Shown here: positions 2,843 through 11,100 of the stretch, piece by piece
How positions within the stretch are numbered: the stretch's first letter is position 1
How the letters are laid out: each line of letters begins with the position of its first letter
Origin: a virus
Length of the DNA: 11,100 nucleotides
UHGV virus genome: UHGV-0074791
Strand: one strand, 5' to 3'
Position numbers and translations under genes: made by a program
The notes under the pieces: model-generated
What the model was told of the DNA's origin: nothing
Seen by the model: the letters and a program-made list of their open reading frames with translations, nothing else
Database searches by the model: none

Positions 2843-3061
2843 GTGGAGAAACATATGCTGAACCTCGATTGTGTTCCTATCTCAACTTATTGCAAAGAAA
2901 CTGGCGAAACTCCTGAAGCAATAAACAAACGTGTACAGCGCGGTGTTTGGCGTGAAGGTGTTCAGGTTTTAAAGGTTGAAGGCGTTAAGGAGAGGTGGAT
3001 TGATCTTAGTGAGGTTGCAAAATGGGCCAGACAAAACTGCTCAAACTACCGCGCGGCGTAA
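2843..3061 (+). CDS. xis: Excisionase-like protein (recombination directionality factor)
   Basis: 72-aa protein immediately upstream of, and overlapping by 40 bp, the tyrosine integrase gene, the classic xis-int arrangement. AGGAGA-like ribosome-binding site at about 2829-2834. Small basic protein with a helix-rich DNA-binding character (KETGETPEAINKRVQRGVW). Confidence 0.6.
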   Translation: MEKHMLNLDCVPISTYCKETGETPEAINKRVQRGVWREGVQVLKVEGVKERWIDLSEVAKWARQNCSNYRAA

Positions 3062-4191
3062 CAATCAGAAAACACCGTCAGGGAGAAACGATCAATATAA
3101 CTTTCACCTACAAAGGAGTTAAATGTCGTGAGCCACTTTCCAATCTGGAAGTAACACCAAAGAACATTAAATACGCCGAGCGTACACTCGGCGAAATTCA
3201 TAATAAGATCGAAAGGGGAACATTCATTTATGCGGAATATTTTCCCCGTTCTGCTCGTTTGAAAATTTTTGGTAATGCTGCTGCAGGCAAAACGGTAAAA
3301 ATGTACCTGGACGAATACCTTGAAATCTGCGAAACGAGAAAACTTTCACCATCTACGATTGGTGGTTATAAAAAATGCCGTAGTGCGTTAGCCTCACTCC
3401 ACATTTGCCCTGCAAGTGAATTAACACCAGCAATCCTGAAAGCGTGGATTCAAAGCCAGAAAACGACCTTAAAAACAATTCGCAACCAGTTATCTTTCCT
3501 GCGGTCAGCACTTGATGAAGCCGTAACCGATGGGGTACTTCAAATTAACCCCGTATCGTTGGTAACTGCTTCGCGCTACCAAAGTGATAAGTCAGAAGCA
3601 GAAAGCAGCTACGTGGTTGATCCGCTATCACCAGCAGAAGTTGATGCATTACTAGCAGCAGCCGGAAACAAACAATGGGAGAATCTGTTCCGGTTCGCTA
3701 TACATACAGGCCTGCGTAGTTCTGAATTATGTGCCCTTCGATGGCGTGATATCGACTTTGTTGGAAAAACTGCCCATGTCCAGAGCGCAAGTGTTGTCGG
3801 TGTTATCAAAGGAACAAAGACAAAAGCCGGTACTCGTAAAGTCGAACTGACAGAAGATGCAATGTTGGCGCTGATAAATCAGAAGCCATTTACATTCATG
3901 AAGGATGCTACAGTCTTTGAAGATCCAAAGACCAATAAGCCTTGGGCAAGTGCTGATGCAATTAGAAAAAAAGCATGGGTGCCAACATTGCGAAAAGCAG
4001 GTATTCGTTACAGAAACCCATATCAAACCAGACATACATTCGCCACCAGCCATATCAGCCGGGGAGCAAACCTGTTTTGGCTTGCGGTTCAAATGGGTCA
4101 TAAAGGACCAGAGATGTTATTTAGACATTATGGCTCATACCTCAAAGAATATGATGGAAATACATCTTTAAATAGAAAAAATAGATATTAG
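3022..4191 (+). CDS. int: Lambda-family tyrosine integrase (site-specific recombinase)
   Basis: 389 aa. N-terminal arm-binding-like region, then a catalytic domain with R (LRSSEL), H-x-x-R (RHTFATSHISRG), a later His (MGHKG) and the Tyr nucleophile (RHYGSYL). Overlaps xis as in lambda. Confidence 0.9.
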   Translation: MGQTKLLKLPRGVTIRKHRQGETINITFTYKGVKCREPLSNLEVTPKNIKYAERTLGEIHNKIERGTFIYAEYFPRSARLKIFGNAAAGKTVKMYLDEYLEICETRKLSPSTIGGYKKCRSALASLHICPASELTPAILKAWIQSQKTTLKTIRNQLSFLRSALDEAVTDGVLQINPVSLVTASRYQSDKSEAESSYVVDPLSPAEVDALLAAAGNKQWENLFRFAIHTGLRSSELCALRWRDIDFVGKTAHVQSASVVGVIKGTKTKAGTRKVELTEDAMLALINQKPFTFMKDATVFEDPKTNKPWASADAIRKKAWVPTLRKAGIRYRNPYQTRHTFATSHISRGANLFWLAVQMGHKGPEMLFRHYGSYLKEYDGNTSLNRKNRY

Positions 4192-4223: not shown

Positions 4224-4913
4224 TCATATCAATGTATGTTGAATAGAATAATTTTCAACACCATAATGAGATGCTAATTTTGATAAAAAACCATCCTTTG
4301 AAGATAAAACATCATCTAACATATTTCGTCTTACTAAAGAGACAAAAAGTGCAGCTGCTCTGGCTTGGCAATTAATAGATTTCGCTGGATTAAATTCAAT
4401 ATCAGTAAACCCATCAAAATTTAATAGATGGAGTGCTAGATTTTTGTTTTGATTGAGCGCACTCAAATATAACCAATCATAAAAAGCAGTCCTGGGGACA
4501 ATGGGCCATATTGTATTATAAAATTTGAAGTTAACTAATCCCCCAGATTCCTTTAATCTCATATCTTTTTTTGCTTCTATCGAGCTTTTATCTAAGATAT
4601 CGACATATGGTCCTCCCATTTCAAATACTTTACTTGCTTGAAATGCAGATTCAACTGTAAACTCTTTCCCAAGTCTTTTCGTCTTTATTCTTAGATTAAA
4701 TGCACTAAGTGCTACCCCCAGCGCATCTTCGGATTTACTAGAAATTTCCAACAAAGAGTTCAATCCCTGCTCATTCGCTGCTGTATGTAACGCCCTGATC
4801 GATTTTTGCTTTTGCGTTTTAGACATACCAGGAGCCCAAGGAAAATCCACATCCTTCGTGATCGATAGTAAGTTCCCTGCGTTTGTAGGGACGAAAACAG
4901 GTCTAACAGCCAT
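4224..4913 (-). CDS. Hypothetical 229-aa protein, second gene of the DarT-like operon; candidate antitoxin or ADP-ribose-removing partner of unrecognised family
   Basis: ATG (reverse complement of 4911-4913) lies 3 nt after the stop of the upstream DarT-like gene, with a ribosome-binding site (AGGA) embedded in that gene's 3' end. I see no macrodomain signature (no GGGV-type glycine loop) and no clear NADAR-like motifs. AT-rich codon usage matches its partner. Confidence 0.6.
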   Translation of the reverse strand: MAVRPVFVPTNAGNLLSITKDVDFPWAPGMSKTQKQKSIRALHTAANEQGLNSLLEISSKSEDALGVALSAFNLRIKTKRLGKEFTVESAFQASKVFEMGGPYVDILDKSSIEAKKDMRLKESGGLVNFKFYNTIWPIVPRTAFYDWLYLSALNQNKNLALHLLNFDGFTDIEFNPAKSINCQARAAALFVSLVRRNMLDDVLSSKDGFLSKLASHYGVENYSIQHTLI

Positions 4914-4916
4914 AAC

Positions 4917-5540
4917 TTATCCTAAATAATAATGCCTCTGAGAATAAAGTGTTCTAGCATTAAGATTATCATAATATCTCTGTATTGTCTGTGGATATAA
5001 TCTCTTGAAATGTTCAGCAGATTCTTTGTTAGGGTGAAAAGTGCTTATAATATATGAGGGAGGAATTTTTTCAAATACCAGTATTTCAGCTTGAACATCC
5101 GTCGTATACTCACTTGGAAGGTTTACATCTCTCTGAATCCCAAAAACATTCTCTGAAAACAAAGCACTAAATGCCTCAGCTCCTTTCATCAAATCAAGAT
5201 TTATAAAACGAACGTTATTCGAAGCTGCGTTGGTAGGATAAAAAGCGCAATCCTTAGCCCAAAGAACAGATGGATTGATTTCTAATATAACCCAGTCCCC
5301 AGGCTTTAAACATCTATATTTATAAAACATTTTTGCATTAGGGTAACTTACGGACAAACAAATCGCATCTGGATGACCATCAATCCTTTCTTCATCATTA
5401 CAATTATATTCATTATTTTCATTATCAAGTTCTGAACGAGACATAAGGCCATTATCTAAAATGGAAGTTAGATTATCGCTATGTGTAAAATGAAACAAGC
5501 TACGAATATTACGTTGCTGAATTATTTCCTGTATTGTCAT
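4917..5540 (-). CDS. DarT-like (DUF4433) ADP-ribosyltransferase, putative DNA-targeting toxin
   Basis: 207 aa. N-terminal LFHFTHSDNLTSILDNGL resembles the DarT hallmark (YHFTH-x-NL-x-SIL); a C-proximal QAEILV segment fits the catalytic-glutamate motif of the DarT ART fold. Size is right for DarT, and it is the first gene of a tightly coupled two-gene operon. Confidence 0.6.
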   Translation of the reverse strand: MTIQEIIQQRNIRSLFHFTHSDNLTSILDNGLMSRSELDNENNEYNCNDEERIDGHPDAICLSVSYPNAKMFYKYRCLKPGDWVILEINPSVLWAKDCAFYPTNAASNNVRFINLDLMKGAEAFSALFSENVFGIQRDVNLPSEYTTDVQAEILVFEKIPPSYIISTFHPNKESAEHFKRLYPQTIQRYYDNLNARTLYSQRHYYLG

Positions 5541-5766: not shown

Positions 5767-5823
5767 ACGTCTATTGTAGTCTAGTGAGAATTGCTGAGAA
5801 CTACGAGTTATGGCACCCTGAAT

Positions 5824-5860
5824 GGGACCCACGAAGATGGGTCCTAAAATCGAGGGTCCC
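5824..5860. promoter_or_regulatory. Three copies of a palindromic GGGWCC(C) element at exact 15-bp spacing in the leader of the P4-type integrase
   Basis: gggaccc at 5824-5830, gggtcc at 5839-5844 and gggtccc at 5854-5860, ending 5 bp before the integrase ATG. Confidence 0.3.
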
Positions 5861-5864
5861 AAAC

Positions 5865-7094
5865 ATGGCCAAAATCGCTAAGAAGCTCACTGACACTGAA
5901 ATCAAAAGCACCAAACCTGCCGAAAAAGAGGTTAACCTTTTTGACGGCGATGGTTTGCTGTTGCGAATCGCTCCCCTGGCGAAGGGAGGGAAGAAAAATT
6001 GGTATTTCAGATATGCAGTGCCTGTGACCAAAAAGCGAACTAAGGTGAGCTTAGGAACCTATCCTCACCTTACACTTGCGAAGGCACGAGCTTTACGTGA
6101 TGAATACTTGTCGTTGCTTACAAATGGTATAGACCCCCAAGTTCATAACAACCAAAAAGCCAATGCACTGAAAGATGCCACGGAACATACATTTCAAGCA
6201 GTAGCCAAGAAGTGGCTTGATGAGAAAGTCAAAACGTCAGGCATCTCCCAAGATCATGCTAACGACATCTGGCGAAGCCTAGAGAGAAATATCTTTTCCA
6301 CATTGGGTGATACCCCAATTAAGGAGATTCGCCCTAAAATGCTTAAACAGCATTTAGAACCCATAGAAAAACGAGGTGTCCTTGAAACACTTCGCCGCAT
6401 CATATCCCGCCTGAATGAAATTTTCCGCTATGCAGCAACAGAAGAACTCATAGAATTCAACCCGGCAGACAACCTGGGGCAACGGTTCAGCAAGCCAAAA
6501 AAACAGAATATGCCAGCATTACCCCCTTCCGAACTCCCTCGCTTCTTGGTTGCTCTAAACAATGCTTCTATCCGTTTGGAAACAAGGCTACTGATTGAGT
6601 GGCAACTTCTCACATGGGTTCGCCCAGGTGAAGCTGTTCGCACAAGATGGTCAGATATTGATATTGAAACTGGCATGTGGAACATCCCGGCGGAGTTTAT
6701 GAAAATGAAGAAGCCTCACAAAGTTCCACTGAGCAAAGAAGCTTTGCGAGTTTTGGATTTAATGAAAGTCATCAGCGGGCATAGAGAGTGGGTGTTCCCC
6801 AGTATCAAAGCTCCACTCAATCACATGCATGAACAAACAGCTAATGCGGCCATAATCCGTATGGGTTTCGGAGGTGAGCTTGTAGCTCACGGTATGCGAT
6901 CCATTGCTAGAACGGCTGCTGAGGAGTCTGGCAAGTTTAGGACTGATGTCTTAGAAGCCGCCCTTGCCCACTCGAAGAAAGATGAAATAATTGCAGCCTA
7001 CAATCGTGCAGAGTATCTCACTGAACGGGTGGTTCTCATGCAATGGTGGAGTGACTATGTTTCGTCTCAAAAATGCAAAGTTATTGCCGCATAA
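5865..7094 (+). CDS. int: P4-type tyrosine integrase (N-terminal arm-binding domain plus phage-integrase catalytic domain)
   Basis: Start chosen at the MAKIAKKLTDTEIKSTKP... ATG (5865), typical of P4-family integrases, rather than the upstream ATG at 5784. Contains F-DGDGL, H-x-x-R (AHGMRSIART) and a Tyr nucleophile region (AAYNRAEYL). Lies directly downstream of the tmRNA 3'-end repeat, as CP4-57 intA does in E. coli K-12. Confidence 0.9.
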   Translation: MAKIAKKLTDTEIKSTKPAEKEVNLFDGDGLLLRIAPLAKGGKKNWYFRYAVPVTKKRTKVSLGTYPHLTLAKARALRDEYLSLLTNGIDPQVHNNQKANALKDATEHTFQAVAKKWLDEKVKTSGISQDHANDIWRSLERNIFSTLGDTPIKEIRPKMLKQHLEPIEKRGVLETLRRIISRLNEIFRYAATEELIEFNPADNLGQRFSKPKKQNMPALPPSELPRFLVALNNASIRLETRLLIEWQLLTWVRPGEAVRTRWSDIDIETGMWNIPAEFMKMKKPHKVPLSKEALRVLDLMKVISGHREWVFPSIKAPLNHMHEQTANAAIIRMGFGGELVAHGMRSIARTAAEESGKFRTDVLEAALAHSKKDEIIAAYNRAEYLTERVVLMQWWSDYVSSQKCKVIAA

Positions 7095-7156
7095 CTCTCC
7101 CATGATGGATTAACTATCTTGATTTAGTTAAAGAATTAATAATCACACCATTAACC

Positions 7157-7206
7157 TATGTGGACTAAGCATAGCCATTTACAAATGGGGACATTGAGTC
7201 CACATA
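7157..7206. repeat. 50-bp imperfect palindrome with a nested central palindrome; candidate recombinase or regulator binding site
   Basis: Outer arms tatgtggact (7157-7166) and agtccacata (7197-7206) are a perfect 10-bp inverted repeat; 18 of 25 positions are symmetric overall; the centre ccatttacaaatgg is itself palindromic. No T-run follows, so it does not look like a terminator. Confidence 0.35.
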
Positions 7207-7376
7207 ACGAAAGCTGTCGGTCATATCAGCTAAATAATTCACATCTCTTCTCGATTATCATACACCTCGAAGATCTACCAAATTCGCTCTAATCAATGAT
7301 AAAACAGTTGAATTCGGTTGAAATTTGATCAATTTTATCCACTACATTGTATTGAATCATCCATGAGGTTTCGTGC

Positions 7377-8933
7377 ATGGCTAGCGAAAATGACAAAAAT
7401 CATAGAGTTAGGGTCGCGCAGTACTTGAGGATGTCTACCGACCATCAGCAATATTCTTTACATAATCAGTCCGAATATATCAAAGATTATGCTGAAAAGA
7501 ACAATATGGAAATCGCTTATACCTACGATGATGCAGGTAAGAGCGGAGTCAGTATCATAGGCCGGCATTCTTTGCAGCAGTTACTTAGTGATGTAGAACA
7601 AAAGAAAATAGATATACAGGCTGTATTATTTTATGATGTGAGCCGTTTTGGTCGTTTTCAAAATAGTGATGAAGCGGCATATTATTCCTTTCTATTTGAG
7701 AGAAATGGTGTAGATCTTATATATTGTTCCGAACCTATACCCACTAAAGATTTCCCTTTAGAGTCCTCTGTTATACTGAATATAAAAAGATCTAGTGCTG
7801 CATATCACAGCAGGAATCTATCTGATAAGGTATTTATAGGGCAAGTAAATTTAATAAAGCTTGGTTATCATCAAGGCGGTATGGCTGGTTATGGGCTGAG
7901 ACGTCTTTTAGTAGACGAAAATGGCATAGCTAAAGAAATATTGAGTTTCCGCAAAAGAAAGAGTATTCAAACAGATAGGGTAATATTAATTCCGGGACCA
8001 AAAAATGAAATAAAAATTGTAAATAGAATATATGATCTCTTTATAGATAATAACGTCCCAGAATTCATTATTGCTGAGAGATTAAATGAACAGAACATAC
8101 CTGCAGAAAATGGAACATTATGGACTCGTGCAAAAATACATCAAATTTTGACAAATGAAAAATATATTGGAAACAACATATATAACAAAACCTCATCTAA
8201 ATTAAAAAGTAGGCTTGTAAAAAACCCCAAACATGAATGGGTTAGATGTGACAAGGCATATAAACCTATTATTTCAAAGAAAAAATACAATAAAGCTCAA
8301 GAAATAATTCAGCTCCGATCCATTCATTTGACTAATGAAGATCTATTAGAAAAACTAAAACAAAAATTAGAATCTAATGGAAAACTATCAGGCTTTATCA
8401 TTGATGAAGATGATACAGGCCCTTCATCTTCTGTTTATAGAACCCGATTTGGTGGTCTTTTAAGAGCATATACTTTGATTGGTTATAAGCCAGAACATGA
8501 TTACAGCTATATCCAAATAAATGAAGCACTAAGATCATTTTACTCAGGCATAATTGAGGATTTTAAGGGGGAAATTTTAAAAAGCAACTGCTATATAGAC
8601 GAATATAAATATGCACCAATGCTTTACATCAATGATGAGTTTTTAATTTCCGTCCTTATTACTAAATGCACACATATGAAATCGGGTAAACTCAGATGGA
8701 AAGTCCGGTTTGATAACTCACAGAAAGCAGACATAACAATTGTTATACGAATGGATTCACAAAATATTTCACCACTTGATTTTTATATCATACCAAAGAT
8801 TGAAAACGAATATAGTAAAATGTGGATGACGGAAACAAACAACATTCGATTAGATCTCTATAGATTTGATAATCTGGATAAACTTCTACAAATTATTACT
8901 CGCATGAAAGTGAGGGAACTATATGCTGCCTGA
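7377..8933 (+). CDS. Large serine recombinase (resolvase/invertase-type catalytic domain plus recombinase domain)
   Basis: 518 aa. N-terminal VAQYLRMSTDHQ holds the serine-recombinase catalytic Ser motif (Y-x-R-x-S-T-x-x-Q), followed by DDAGKSG and LFYDVSRFGR motifs of the resolvase domain, then a recombinase-domain-like region (IKIVNRIYDLF..., W-x-x-x-KI-x-QILTNEKYIG). GAGG ribosome-binding site 8 nt before the ATG. Strongly AT-rich. Confidence 0.85.
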   Translation: MASENDKNHRVRVAQYLRMSTDHQQYSLHNQSEYIKDYAEKNNMEIAYTYDDAGKSGVSIIGRHSLQQLLSDVEQKKIDIQAVLFYDVSRFGRFQNSDEAAYYSFLFERNGVDLIYCSEPIPTKDFPLESSVILNIKRSSAAYHSRNLSDKVFIGQVNLIKLGYHQGGMAGYGLRRLLVDENGIAKEILSFRKRKSIQTDRVILIPGPKNEIKIVNRIYDLFIDNNVPEFIIAERLNEQNIPAENGTLWTRAKIHQILTNEKYIGNNIYNKTSSKLKSRLVKNPKHEWVRCDKAYKPIISKKKYNKAQEIIQLRSIHLTNEDLLEKLKQKLESNGKLSGFIIDEDDTGPSSSVYRTRFGGLLRAYTLIGYKPEHDYSYIQINEALRSFYSGIIEDFKGEILKSNCYIDEYKYAPMLYINDEFLISVLITKCTHMKSGKLRWKVRFDNSQKADITIVIRMDSQNISPLDFYIIPKIENEYSKMWMTETNNIRLDLYRFDNLDKLLQIITRMKVRELYAA

Positions 8934-9819
8934 AAAAAATGAATTCTCAATAATTCAAATTGAGATTGCAAAAATAAAATTTCTTAACCCACGAACAAGA
9001 AATAAGGTAGTGCATGAAGAAATAAAGGAAAGCATAAAAAAAAGAGGATTAAGCAAGCCAATAAGCGTAATAGCTATTGATGAAGGCGATTTCAAATATG
9101 CTTTAATTTGTGGTCAAGGGAGAATAGAGGCTCTCGTTGCATTAGGTGAAACTATTATTCCAGCAATTATAAGAGATGTATCAGAAGAAGATGCTTACGT
9201 TATGAGTTTAGTTGAAAACATTGCAAGGAGAAGACCACGTTCTAATGAGTTATTACAGGTGATTAAAGACATGAAAATCAGAGGACTTTCAGACTCCGAA
9301 ATAAGTGAGATTACTGGATATTCATCGAACTGGGTGAGCAGTATTAATATGCTACTTGATAAGGGAGAGCATAAACTTCTCTCAGCAGTCGAACGGGGTA
9401 ATTTGCCTCTGTATCTCGCAGTGCAATTTGCAAGATGTGAAACTGAGGAAGCACAAGATATTCTTACCGAAGCATATGATAAAAAATTAATAAAAAGTCG
9501 GGACATTATAAAGATAAAACACATTCTAAATCAAAGAACAGTTGGGAATAAAGGTGCAAAAGCAGCCGGATTTTATTATCACAAACCATCAAAAAGGATG
9601 ACTGCAGAGGAGTTGATTGAGCTTTATGAAAATAGTATCGCTGAACATAAATCTGTTTATAACAACTCAAAATTCATAAAAACCAACCTACTAATAGTAA
9701 ATGAGATTTTTAACATCATAATGATGAATAAAAGCTTTCAACATATACTTGAACAAGAGAATCTTTCAGAACTACCATCTCAGATATTAACCCCAGTAAA
9801 CAAAGAGGTATTAAAATGA
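8923..9819 (+). CDS. ParB/Srx-fold N-terminal domain protein (ParB-like), paralogue 1
   Basis: 298 aa. ISVIAIDEGDFKYALICGQGRIEALVALGETIIPAIIRDV...SLVENIARRRPRS follows the ParB N-terminal domain pattern (Pfam ParBc, PF02195) with arginine-rich box-III-like ENIARRR, but box II is GQGR rather than canonical GERR. Start overlaps the recombinase stop by 11 bp; GAGGG ribosome-binding site upstream. Confidence 0.75.
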   Translation: MLPEKNEFSIIQIEIAKIKFLNPRTRNKVVHEEIKESIKKRGLSKPISVIAIDEGDFKYALICGQGRIEALVALGETIIPAIIRDVSEEDAYVMSLVENIARRRPRSNELLQVIKDMKIRGLSDSEISEITGYSSNWVSSINMLLDKGEHKLLSAVERGNLPLYLAVQFARCETEEAQDILTEAYDKKLIKSRDIIKIKHILNQRTVGNKGAKAAGFYYHKPSKRMTAEELIELYENSIAEHKSVYNNSKFIKTNLLIVNEIFNIIMMNKSFQHILEQENLSELPSQILTPVNKEVLK

Positions 9820-10712
9820 TTCAGATACGTTTTGGCGATAATTTTATTTACCTGGAAACTAATAAGTTAATTCCATCTAAGGAATTATTAGAAAACGTAA
9901 AGCGAAGCCATAAATATCATCAAATAGTTACCTCTATCGAAAGCTTAGGTATTATTGAACCAATAATAGTATTCTATGACAAAGATAAAGATGTCACTAA
10001 GATACTTGATGGCCATTTAAGGGTTGAGGCTTTAAAAGACTTAGGTATAGAAAAAGCTCCATGTATACTTTCGAGCATAGATGATGCTTTCACTCCTAAC
10101 AAACAAGTGAATCATATAAATGTAGTTGAAGAACATAGAATGATAATTAAGTCTCTGGCAAAAGTATCAATTGAAAAACTTAGTGCTGCTTTGGGCATAT
10201 CTGTTGATGCCATAAAAGATAAAGCTAATGTAATGAACGGTATAGATCCAAGTGTGATTGCGAAACTTTCTGATAAACCTATACCTAAGGCTACATTTGA
10301 TGTTTTGAGGAAAATGAAACCAATTCGTCAAATTGAAGCAGTCGGTACAATGATTAATTTTGATAATTATAGTAAAAAATTTGCAATGAGCATCTTGGAT
10401 GCAACACCGGCATCAATGATAGTAAATAAAGGGAAAAACACTCCCTATAAAAAGGACATAAAAAAAACCATACTTCGTCTGGAACAAGAAATGGCAACAA
10501 CTTCGGAAGAAACGAAAAAGCTTCAAACCGAGTATGGTTCAGATATGTTGAAATTCGTTATAATCCAGTCATATATTAATAAATTACTTGGCAATTCTAA
10601 AGTTCTTCATTGGTTCTTAGAAAACGAGGTTGATTATCTTAATGAGTTAAAAAGAATTTCTAGAATAAATTCTTTGGATGATAAGACTCTTACTGAAAAC
10701 AGCAAGTCATAG
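9816..10712 (+). CDS. ParB-like domain protein, paralogue 2 (more divergent)
   Basis: 298 aa, same length as paralogue 1. IESLGIIEPIIVFYDKDKDVTKILDGHLRVEALKDLGIEKAPCIL resembles the ParB N-terminal domain with DGHLR in place of GERR, followed by a helix-turn-helix-like segment (LSAALGISVDAIKDKA). ATGA start-stop overlap with the upstream gene and an AGAGG ribosome-binding site. Confidence 0.65.
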   Translation: MIQIRFGDNFIYLETNKLIPSKELLENVKRSHKYHQIVTSIESLGIIEPIIVFYDKDKDVTKILDGHLRVEALKDLGIEKAPCILSSIDDAFTPNKQVNHINVVEEHRMIIKSLAKVSIEKLSAALGISVDAIKDKANVMNGIDPSVIAKLSDKPIPKATFDVLRKMKPIRQIEAVGTMINFDNYSKKFAMSILDATPASMIVNKGKNTPYKKDIKKTILRLEQEMATTSEETKKLQTEYGSDMLKFVIIQSYINKLLGNSKVLHWFLENEVDYLNELKRISRINSLDDKTLTENSKS

Positions 10713-10954
10713 TCATGGTTTTATATAGCCTAAATAAACCAAGAAGTATACTTACACAACGACCTTCACGCCGAAGAAGCTGTCAGATACGCCAGCAACC
10801 AAAGCATTACGTTTAAGTGTCAGTCATTGATACGAAGGGATAACTGCGTATCAGCAGCCGGACATTGAGTCGAATAAAGGCTGGTAGAGAGGGACAGTTC
10901 TGTGTCACCGGGAGATTCGTCAGAAACATCAGCGGCAGAACAGATGAACCAGCA

Positions 10955-11100
10955 GGTAATGGTCCCAACTTATTGATAGTGTTTTATGTTCAGATAATGC
11001 CCGATGACTTTGTCATGCAGCTCCACCGATTTTGAGAACGACAGCGACTTCCGTCCCAGCCTTGCCAGATGTTGTCTCAGATTCAGATTATGTCGCTCAA
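10955..11100 (-). mobile_element. IS1 insertion sequence, right end (terminal inverted repeat and 3' part of insB); element continues past the right edge
   Basis: Minus-strand sequence from 10990 down to 10955 reads aacataaaacactatcaataagttgggaccattacc, matching the IS1 terminus as I recall it (...CACTATCAATAAGTTGGAGTCATTACC) apart from 2-3 mismatches. The adjacent frame encodes the InsB C-terminus. Confidence 0.85.
10970..11100 (-). CDS. insB: IS1 transposase InsB, C-terminal 43 codons (5' part lies outside the window)
   Basis: Minus-strand translation ...[42 protein letters not shown]-stop is the InsB C-terminus; the stop codon is the reverse complement of 10970-10972. Confidence 0.85.

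Follow-up and report, generated by a model that had tools for sequence, protein, structure and literature searches.

Two adjacent genes in an 11,100-nt stretch of DNA recorded as UHGV virus genome UHGV-0074791 (hereafter the window) encode ParB-like proteins, named here ParB-A and ParB-B, and directly follow a gene encoding a large serine recombinase. The reading that we favor, and to which we give an even chance of being right, is that ParB-A and ParB-B are anciently diverged, co-evolving orphan clamp-type ParB proteins, which would form a nucleotide-switched, hydrolysis-poor clamp controlling or assisting the recombinase within a self-contained cassette. This cassette is carried by genomic islands, megaplasmids and transposons of many Proteobacteria. 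The layout of the window is that of Escherichia coli chromosomal DNA and comprises, in this order, the terminal part of a lambdoid prophage, a DarT1/NADAR toxin-antitoxin pair, a P4-like tyrosine integrase, the three co-directional genes and IS1. The parts of the cassette are the following:

7377..8933 (+), large serine recombinase, 518 aa, first gene of the operon (Pfam Resolvase, E 2.7e-21; Recombinase, E 5.2e-22)

8923..9819 (+), ParB-A, 298 aa: ParB/sulfiredoxin (Srx) nucleotide-binding domain, helix-turn-helix (HTH) and C-terminal long-helix domain (list of open reading frames, Pfam, AlphaFold2 (AF2)/Foldseek)

9816..10712 (+), ParB-B, 298 aa: divergent ParB/Srx domain, HTH and C-terminal long-helix domain (same sources)

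10713..10761 (+), 3′ tail of the cassette; homology among E. coli islands with differing cargo stops at ...TATACTTACACAAC (10761) (blastn)

The recombinase, ParB-A and ParB-B genes are one translationally coupled operon. The stop of the recombinase gene overlaps the start of ParB-A by 11 nt, and the stop of ParB-A overlaps the start of ParB-B by 4 nt (ATGA). The G+C content of the three-gene segment is 29-37%, versus 46-57% in the prophage part. An earlier note, made from the letters of this DNA alone, had described two proteins of equal length, 298 aa, and the reading frames at the coordinates given above, both on the + strand, agree with it.

Fold and homology of ParB-A and ParB-B

ParB-A matches the Pfam families ParB_N (PF02195; E 3.7e-12, 46.5 bits, cut-off 26.3) and RepB (PF07506; E 8.6e-8, 32.9 bits, gathering cut-off 30). 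ParB-B passes the latter gathering cut-off with 87.0 bits (E 2.2e-24), and its ParB_N score is marginally below the 26.3 cut-off (25.8 bits, E 1.1e-5); its ParB/Srx fold is backed by Foldseek matches to Myxococcus xanthus ParB (MxParB), Noc and sulfiredoxin and by hhalign comparison to family A. Models were built with AF2 from the family alignments and reached a mean pLDDT of 81.7 for ParB-A and 84.1 for ParB-B. For both models, the top Foldseek matches, which extend over about 200 columns and take in the nucleotide-binding domain and the HTH, are clamp-type ParB proteins, with E-values between 1e-8 and 1e-11: M. xanthus ParB (bound to cytidine diphosphate (CDP) or CTPgammaS), Bacillus subtilis ParB-CDP, Noc, KorB and Caulobacter crescentus ParB. 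Noc, MxParB-CDP, BsParB-CDP and KorB are matched by ParB-A within that range, and the best match of ParB-B is MxParB Q52A-CTPgammaS (E 4e-10, 201 columns). Enzymes consisting of the Srx domain only score far lower than the clamp ParBs with both models. Each model finishes with a helix of 40-48 residues and short helices, and these C-terminal helices could be a dimerization domain.

The fold similar to the ParB N-terminal domain which the earlier note had read in both proteins is thus borne out by Pfam, by HMMER alignments to ParBs of solved structure and by the AF2/Foldseek comparison. Its further suggestion of a nuclease-type ParB domain is not: both models match clamp ParB, Noc and KorB over about 200 columns and have no nuclease domain, no HNH or other nuclease family is among the Pfam matches of ParB-A and ParB-B, and their architecture, with an HTH and a C-terminal domain, differs from the minimal Srx-only or GmrSD DUF262-HNH type. 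The two proteins are detectably homologous to each other, as the note had supposed in calling them paralogues, both by BLASTP (E 7e-4, 30% identity over 63 aa) and by profile-profile comparison (probability 95.7%, E 9.5e-9, 21% identity over 132 columns). As this homology is only distant, ParB-A and ParB-B are ancient paralogues and not the product of a recent duplication.

Conservation of the non-canonical motifs

The motifs that correspond to the conserved boxes of ParB are located as follows:

8986..9000 (+), NPRTR of ParB-A, equivalent to NPxQPR of ParB in the Spo0J alignment; R26 is kept and the catalytic Gln is replaced by T25

9109..9123 (+), CGQGR of ParB-A, box II (P motif); G64 and R67 fit GxxR, the catalytic Glu is replaced by Q65 and the first Arg by G66

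9214..9234 (+), ENIARRR of ParB-A, box III (equivalent of ENLQR); E98, N99 and R102 are invariant

10008..10022 (+), DGHLR of ParB-B, box II; D65, G66 and R69 do not vary in the family, and H67 and L68 stand in place of Glu and the first Arg

In HMMER alignments spanning ParB-A residues 6-189, through the HTH, GERR of T. thermophilus Spo0J and M. xanthus ParB is matched by GQGR, and their ENLQRE by ENIARR; GHLR of ParB-B occupies the position of GERR in Noc and that of GHHR in the serine kinase SerK. The replacement of GERR by GQGR in the first protein and by DGHLR in the second, and the box-III-like ENIARRR segment of the first, had all been pointed out from the sequence, and the alignments put them at equivalent positions. 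The pair is also asymmetric, as had been suggested: ParB-A keeps the four motifs NPRxR, GLxxP, GxxR and ENxxR, and ParB-B keeps only D-G-x-x-R together with invariants of its own, having neither NPxQPR nor ENxxR. An active subunit with a divergent partner is possible.

Among 41 non-redundant relatives of ParB-A, down to 36% identity, residues R24, R26, G42, L43, P46, C63, G64, G66, R67, E69, S95, L96, E98, N99 and R102 are invariant; N22 and P23 are likewise family invariants beside R24 and R26, Q65 and R103 reach a conservation of at least 90%, and T25 is a variable position within the family. Among 62 relatives of ParB-B, the invariant residues are S31, K33, Q36, E48, D65, G66, R69, E71, C83 and N95, with K33, Q36, E48, C83 and N95 invariant in both family alignments. 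Essentially the same picture was obtained for both proteins from an independent set of 66 genome loci, in which the two reading frames are intact and of steady length (283-316 aa). As the odd motifs are invariant or nearly so across families down to about 35% identity, they have been selected and do not reflect decay, and they are under purifying selection.

This bears on the suggestion that one or both proteins might be degenerate, which was made in the earlier note on account of the missing arginines. It does not hold: CGQGR, ENIARR and DGxxR are (nearly) invariant in the 41, 62 and 66 homologues, and the GxxR arginine is kept in both proteins. We give next to no credence to the stronger form of that idea, in which one or both genes would be decaying, non-functional paralogues. 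The non-canonical box II of both and the absence of box III and of the N-terminal motif from ParB-B would fit it, but the frames remain intact and of constant length in the 66 loci, the family motifs stay invariant, the proteins co-evolve with their partners (see below), and at least 80% of the ParB-B query is covered in 612 of 5,426 complete E. coli genomes, mostly at 95-99+% identity.

Binding of cytidine triphosphate (CTP) by M. xanthus ParB depends on R95, the final arginine of GERR, and Q52 (of NPxQPR) and E93 (of GERR) are catalytic; mutants of Q52 or E93 keep CTP binding and closure and reside much longer on DNA (bioRxiv 10.1101/2021.05.05.442810). The equivalents of Q52 and E93 in ParB-A, T25 and Q65, are both changed, and the arginine equivalent to MxParB R95 is retained in both proteins of the pair (R67 in ParB-A, R69 in ParB-B). 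GxxR is the common P motif of the ParB-CTPase fold, and mutation of its R to A gives the customary non-binding control; the nucleotide specificity of the fold is unpredictable from sequence or from AlphaFold3 (PMC12704722). The retained arginine suggests that ParB-A and ParB-B bind a nucleoside triphosphate.

Linkage to the recombinase and distribution of the cassette

Relatives of ParB-B were scanned with one genome per species, which gave matches in more than 531 species, and 80 loci were kept for the count of gene order. The recombinase is matched upstream of the ParB genes and on the same strand in 75 of these 80 loci, and ParB-A upstream of ParB-B in 78. Exceptions to the order recombinase-A-B are mostly contig ends; three others (L018, L026 and L066, in our numbering of loci) are decayed or truncated copies. 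The same order is found in Salmonella, Geobacter sulfurreducens and Dickeya. The gene junctions of 66 complete cassettes are mostly of -1 or -4 nt, and the matrices of pairwise distances correlate with r = 0.967 between recombinase and ParB-A, 0.958 between recombinase and ParB-B, and 0.981 between ParB-A and ParB-B. The ParB pair is an invariant companion of the upstream recombinase, and the three proteins co-evolve.

The cassette is present in 612-627 of the 5,426 complete E. coli genomes (about 11%), E. coli B/BL21 included. In E. coli it co-occurs with the P4-like integrase (at least 90% identity), which it directly follows at ssrA; integrase homologues of 80% identity belong to cassette-free islands, and their homology ends near the integrase stop codon. 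At the other side, the homology between islands with differing cargo ends 49 nt past the ParB-B stop, at 10761 (10760-10763 by blastn against L008 and L009), and cassette variants are covered only to about 10761-10764. On plasmids, 90 entries of PLSDB carry the cassette, and homologues are common on rhizobial megaplasmids. In pAtC58 the cassette lies between AbiEii and Fic genes, and in Sinorhizobium meliloti pSymA at a fixed locus. In a Tn7-like element of a Piscinibacter gummiphilus plasmid (L092, NZ_CP136338.1), it is the first cargo after TnsA-TnsB-TniB-TniQ. The cassette is essentially absent from phage records; a phage origin, for which the sole basis is one unverified 7.5-kb 'phage' record, was discarded.

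Relationship to partition proteins

ParB-A and ParB-B share with canonical ParB/Spo0J and Noc the domain order and, in ParB-A, alignable boxes I-III, besides the Foldseek matches already described; they differ in lacking a ParA partner, in the replacement of Gln, Glu and the first Arg of GERR and, for ParB-B, in the absence of box III. No ParA or RepA gene was found in the window, nor among the 25 commonest families of each neighbor census, and no repA or repC gene near the cassette. It is very improbable, in our view, that the two are ordinary partition proteins (ParB, or RepB of repABC) of a plasmid or excised island. Their RefSeq name is 'ParB/RepB/Spo0J family partition protein', both match Pfam RepB and the TIGR00180 domain model, and their homologues reside on rhizobial megaplasmids. 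Yet every curated partition model stays below its cut-off: TIGR00180 gives 57.1 for ParB-A and 34.7 for ParB-B against 58.45, the repABC RepB equivalog (TIGR03454 / PRK13866) 29.5 and 12.1 against 201.5, and the Noc, PRTRC ParB and PRK13832 models are far from theirs. Moreover, no ParA or RepA recurs nearby, each of the 633 places found in E. coli genomes lies on the chromosome, GERR and the catalytic residues are replaced, and the invariant neighbor is a recombinase. What is shared with RepB of repABC is the PF07506 gathering score, passed by both proteins, and the megaplasmid location; PF07506 serves here as a sequence family only, and with scores far under the equivalog cut-off and no repA/repC the name 'RepB' appears to be a misnomer for this family. 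Thousands of annotated genes probably bear a misleading database name, 'partition protein' or 'RepB'.

The recombinase

The protein encoded upstream belongs to the large serine recombinases: PF00239 and PF07508 both match, and the Ser nucleophile and the Arg set are present. Y16, R18, S20, T21, Q24, D87, R90 and R93 are invariant in 66 homologues, so by sequence the catalytic residue set is intact. The C-terminal region of about 200 aa is conserved. No Pfam family matched the C-terminal 204 aa, and no conserved Cys cluster was found across the 66 homologues; as judged from these sequences, the recombinase is without the zinc-ribbon/coiled-coil domain. A homologue search with the C-terminal domain gave fragments only, and similarity to CcrB is weak.

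In large serine recombinases, the zinc-ribbon/coiled-coil domain usually provides site binding and control of directionality. The cassette recombinase resembles those that work with accessory factors (phiC31/Bxb1 with their recombination directionality factors, CcrAB, TnpX) in having Resolvase and Recombinase domains, and differs from them in this predicted lack of the zinc-ribbon/coiled-coil domain. Accessory DNA-binding proteins are known to set the direction or topology of serine recombination, as in the small serine recombinases, which depend on architectural proteins (Sin/beta with Hbsu, Hin/Gin with Fis), but we know of no serine recombinase that uses ParB-type proteins.

A palindrome upstream of the operon and comparison with KorB and VirB

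A short sequence feature precedes the operon:

7321..7336 (no strand), 16-bp near-palindrome AAATTTGATCAATTTT, containing GATC, in what is likely the promoter region; it precedes the recombinase ATG by 41-56 nt

AAATTTGATCAATTTT is one mismatch away from the perfect palindrome AAAATTGATCAATTTT, which occurs at the same position (-57..-42) in L009, L015, L016 and L024; L007 and L021 carry near copies. Taking into account its size and position, 7321-7336 is a candidate operator or parS-like loading site for ParB-A/ParB-B. A second, 50-bp imperfect palindrome is found at 7157-7206 (TATGTGGACT...AGTCCACATA, with CCATTT-AC-AAATGG as its inner part), 170-220 nt upstream of the recombinase; between window-type and L009-type islands its left half is identical and its right half sharply different.

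KorB of plasmid RK2 is a ParB carried by a mobile genetic element, a CTP-dependent sliding clamp of regulatory function that acts with a protein partner (KorA); like ParB-A and ParB-B, it combines a ParB/Srx nucleotide-binding domain with an HTH, and it is among the best structural matches to both. KorB binds a short palindrome in promoters, retains GERR, functions as a homodimer and is accompanied by a gene for the ParA homologue IncC. In the cassette, by contrast, the ParB-like subunits are of two kinds, ParA is absent and a serine recombinase is the obligatory companion. Of the two catalytic residues, VirB of Shigella has one; it is a weak CTPase, but still a CTP-binding DNA clamp (PMC10770331). 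As an orphan ParB relative with an incomplete catalytic dyad, whose behavior is the one predicted for ParB-A, VirB is the best precedent for what ParB-A may be. It differs in keeping both arginines of GxRR, of which ParB-A and ParB-B keep the last only, and in being a single-protein anti-silencer, where ParB-A and ParB-B are a pair accompanied by a recombinase.

These similarities lend themselves to another reading, in which the ParB pair would be mainly KorB/VirB-like regulators, that is, nucleotide-gated clamps that silence or anti-silence island genes and autoregulate, the recombinase being independent and merely co-transcribed. It would account for the structural match to KorB, for a palindrome that overlaps the likely promoter and for the variable cargo immediately downstream, and weak-CTPase clamps that regulate transcription, such as VirB, do exist. 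We nevertheless regard it as unlikely, as the pair is fixed to one recombinase family (overlapping stop/start, r = 0.96-0.98) across classes of Proteobacteria despite wholly changing flanks, and as many loci already have a separate, divergent HTH regulator.

Proposed mechanism

In the mechanism that we propose for the recombinase-linked clamp, ParB-A and ParB-B would bind a nucleoside triphosphate via the retained GxxR arginine, and the bound nucleotide would be hydrolyzed slowly or never since other residues stand in place of the catalytic Gln and Glu of canonical ParB. An asymmetric A-B clamp would assemble, probably through the C-terminal helices, and load on DNA at the short palindrome by the operon promoter. 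There it would act as accessory or regulatory partner of the recombinase that lacks a zinc-ribbon/coiled-coil domain. The output would be control of site-specific recombination of the host element (excision/integration, multimer resolution or cargo exchange), together with autoregulation.

Several points weigh against this proposal. Nucleotide binding, the A-B heterodimer, the loading site and the coupling of A/B to the recombinase are all steps that we infer. The first Arg of GERR is gone in both proteins, and since the VirB mutation R93A, which affects the equivalent residue, lowers CTP affinity about 100-fold (PMC10770331), binding may be weak or another nucleotide may be used. Distance correlations of about 0.97 are equally expected from plain co-inheritance of neighboring genes. 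The palindrome is conserved within the Enterobacterales only. The cassette is stable at a single locus both in E. coli and in S. meliloti, and in the loci examined, these included, no recombination sites (att), empty sites or rearrangement polymorphism attributable to the recombinase were found.

CTP switches of the ParB type are known to serve in the segregation of chromosomes and plasmids (ParB), in nucleoid occlusion (Noc) and in the control of transcription (KorB, VirB). If the proposal is true, a ParB pair hard-wired to a site-specific recombinase would be a new output for this switch and its first heteromeric version; conversely, it would amount to a site-specific recombination system under a ParB-type nucleoside triphosphate switch, and would suggest a new control of serine recombinases, enzymes of importance to genome engineering. 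Orphans of the ParB fold are already known from mobile elements (PMC12704722), and the heterotypic pair tied to a serine recombinase is apparently undescribed. The orphan ParB-CTPase-fold proteins surveyed by Kaljevic et al. (2025; PMC12704722) resemble ParB-A and ParB-B in the absence of ParA, the link to mobile genetic elements, the GxxR P motif and a possible specificity other than for CTP; the text of that survey makes no mention of recombinases, RepB/PF07506 or heteromeric pairs. Our literature search found nothing on a recombinase-ParB-ParB cassette. As the cassette is present in E. coli B/BL21, these hypotheses are directly testable.

A putative structured RNA in alphaproteobacterial-type cassettes

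In 52-55 of 93 loci, with cassettes of the alphaproteobacterial type, a structured RNA-like motif of about 132 nt lies directly 3′ of the ParB-B stop, a few nucleotides away (e.g., L089:10903-11033 and L033:5915-6046). It is more conserved than the genes themselves. Its consensus folds into six helices with 35 base pairs; compensatory changes affect 12 of these pairs, and the paired fraction of cells is 97.1%, versus 27-45% when the partners are slid. When the motif was retrieved from metagenomes by sequence alone, ParB-B ended just upstream of it in 95 of the 105 loci with enough upstream sequence. A covariance-model search did not find it in the window, the Enterobacterales, Geobacter, pAtC58 or pSymA, and a search of the window and related loci against Rfam returned no family, for this motif included. 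The element looks like an undescribed structured RNA dedicated to the cassette.

With this RNA in mind, the clamp can be pictured in a more specific way: a heterodimeric nucleotide-gated clamp, with one ParB-like and one degenerate site, would license or direct the zinc-ribbon-less recombinase, aided in the alphaproteobacterial versions by the RNA of about 132 nt. We hold this version as a tentative one, clearly less probable than the more general proposal.

Surroundings of the cassette

The neighbor census took two genes on each side of the cassette. Upstream neighbors are heterogeneous and mostly housekeeping genes, and downstream neighbors include the defense-type families ResIII, SNF2, WYL and McrBC, and also DUF6119. 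From this asymmetry, the cassette tends to lie between a host- or mobility-gene border and variable cargo.

Such company raises the question of whether the three genes are themselves a system of anti-phage or anti-plasmid defense or exclusion, in which the ParB-like proteins would sense or load on foreign DNA and the recombinase would be the effector. The cassette does occupy positions typical of defense hotspots, next to the P4-like integrase, to TniQ of the Tn7-like element, to AbiE and type I restriction-modification genes and, in the window, near DarT1-NADAR, and the downstream families just listed point the same way. However, PADLOC-DB 2.0 matched no system; it returned only weak MTase_II matches, owed to the ParB domain of ParB-domain-containing methyltransferases (E 0.0077 and 2.2e-7), and none for the recombinase. 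The cassette has no nuclease or toxin domain, neighbors of this kind are equally expected of a mobility or maintenance module on a defense-carrying island, and the housekeeping genes upstream suggest a frequent position at the island edge. We consider defense improbable, somewhat more so than a purely regulatory role.

In the window, the cassette is preceded by:

5784-7094, P4-like tyrosine integrase, which directly adjoins ssrA in other genomes

Many cassettes from outside the enterobacteria have a fourth conserved gene, which encodes a small HTH protein and is divergently transcribed immediately before the recombinase; it occurs in about 49 of the 80 species loci, and also in Geobacter (Cro/C1-type), and examples are L089:6996-7514(-) and L002:6109-6366(-). 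The window has none at 7095-7376, where the E. coli version consists of 282 bp of non-coding DNA. The cassette is followed by a VgrG/AHH toxin cluster in L092 and adjoined by a VgrG3-like gene in Salmonella. In Enterobacter chinensis and Leclercia tamurae (L011 and L012), the integrase and the cassette are 97-100% identical to the E. coli copy, which indicates a recent transfer of the island between genera.

In the E. coli islands L008 (12911-13154) and L009 (12911-13154), the P4-like integrase gene has its 3′ end (window 6852-7095) repeated, as a 244-bp copy of about 80% identity, some 100 bp past ParB-B; beyond this copy come TIGR04141, the HxsABCD genes and a relaxase. We take the copy as a probable relic of islands in tandem. 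The cassette was also considered as a ~4-kb insertion in the integrase gene, a reading that was rejected: E. coli genomes have no empty site, and the 80%-identical integrase homologues no mosaic breakpoint either. A 12-nt direct repeat, GGACATTGAGTC, at 7189 and 10860 is compatible with chance (BLAST E ~4) and in the wrong orientation for att half-sites of a serine recombinase. Candidate tRNA-derived direct repeats flanking the cassette in L016, L019, L034, L036 and L057 were none of them convincing. Multiple copies or recent transposition on S. meliloti megaplasmids were likewise discarded, as the full cassette is at one conserved locus and the extra 'places' are short fragments.

Elsewhere in the window, genes for DarT (207 aa) and a DarT1-associated NADAR antitoxin (229 aa) are located at 4224-5540 (-), between the prophage integrase (3022-4191) and the P4-like integrase. 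As the pair sits between two integrases, three mobile or defense modules are stacked at this locus. IS1 (10955-11100) cuts the island about 240 bp past ParB-B, and the IS1-island junction is common to many E. coli genomes, E. coli B included.

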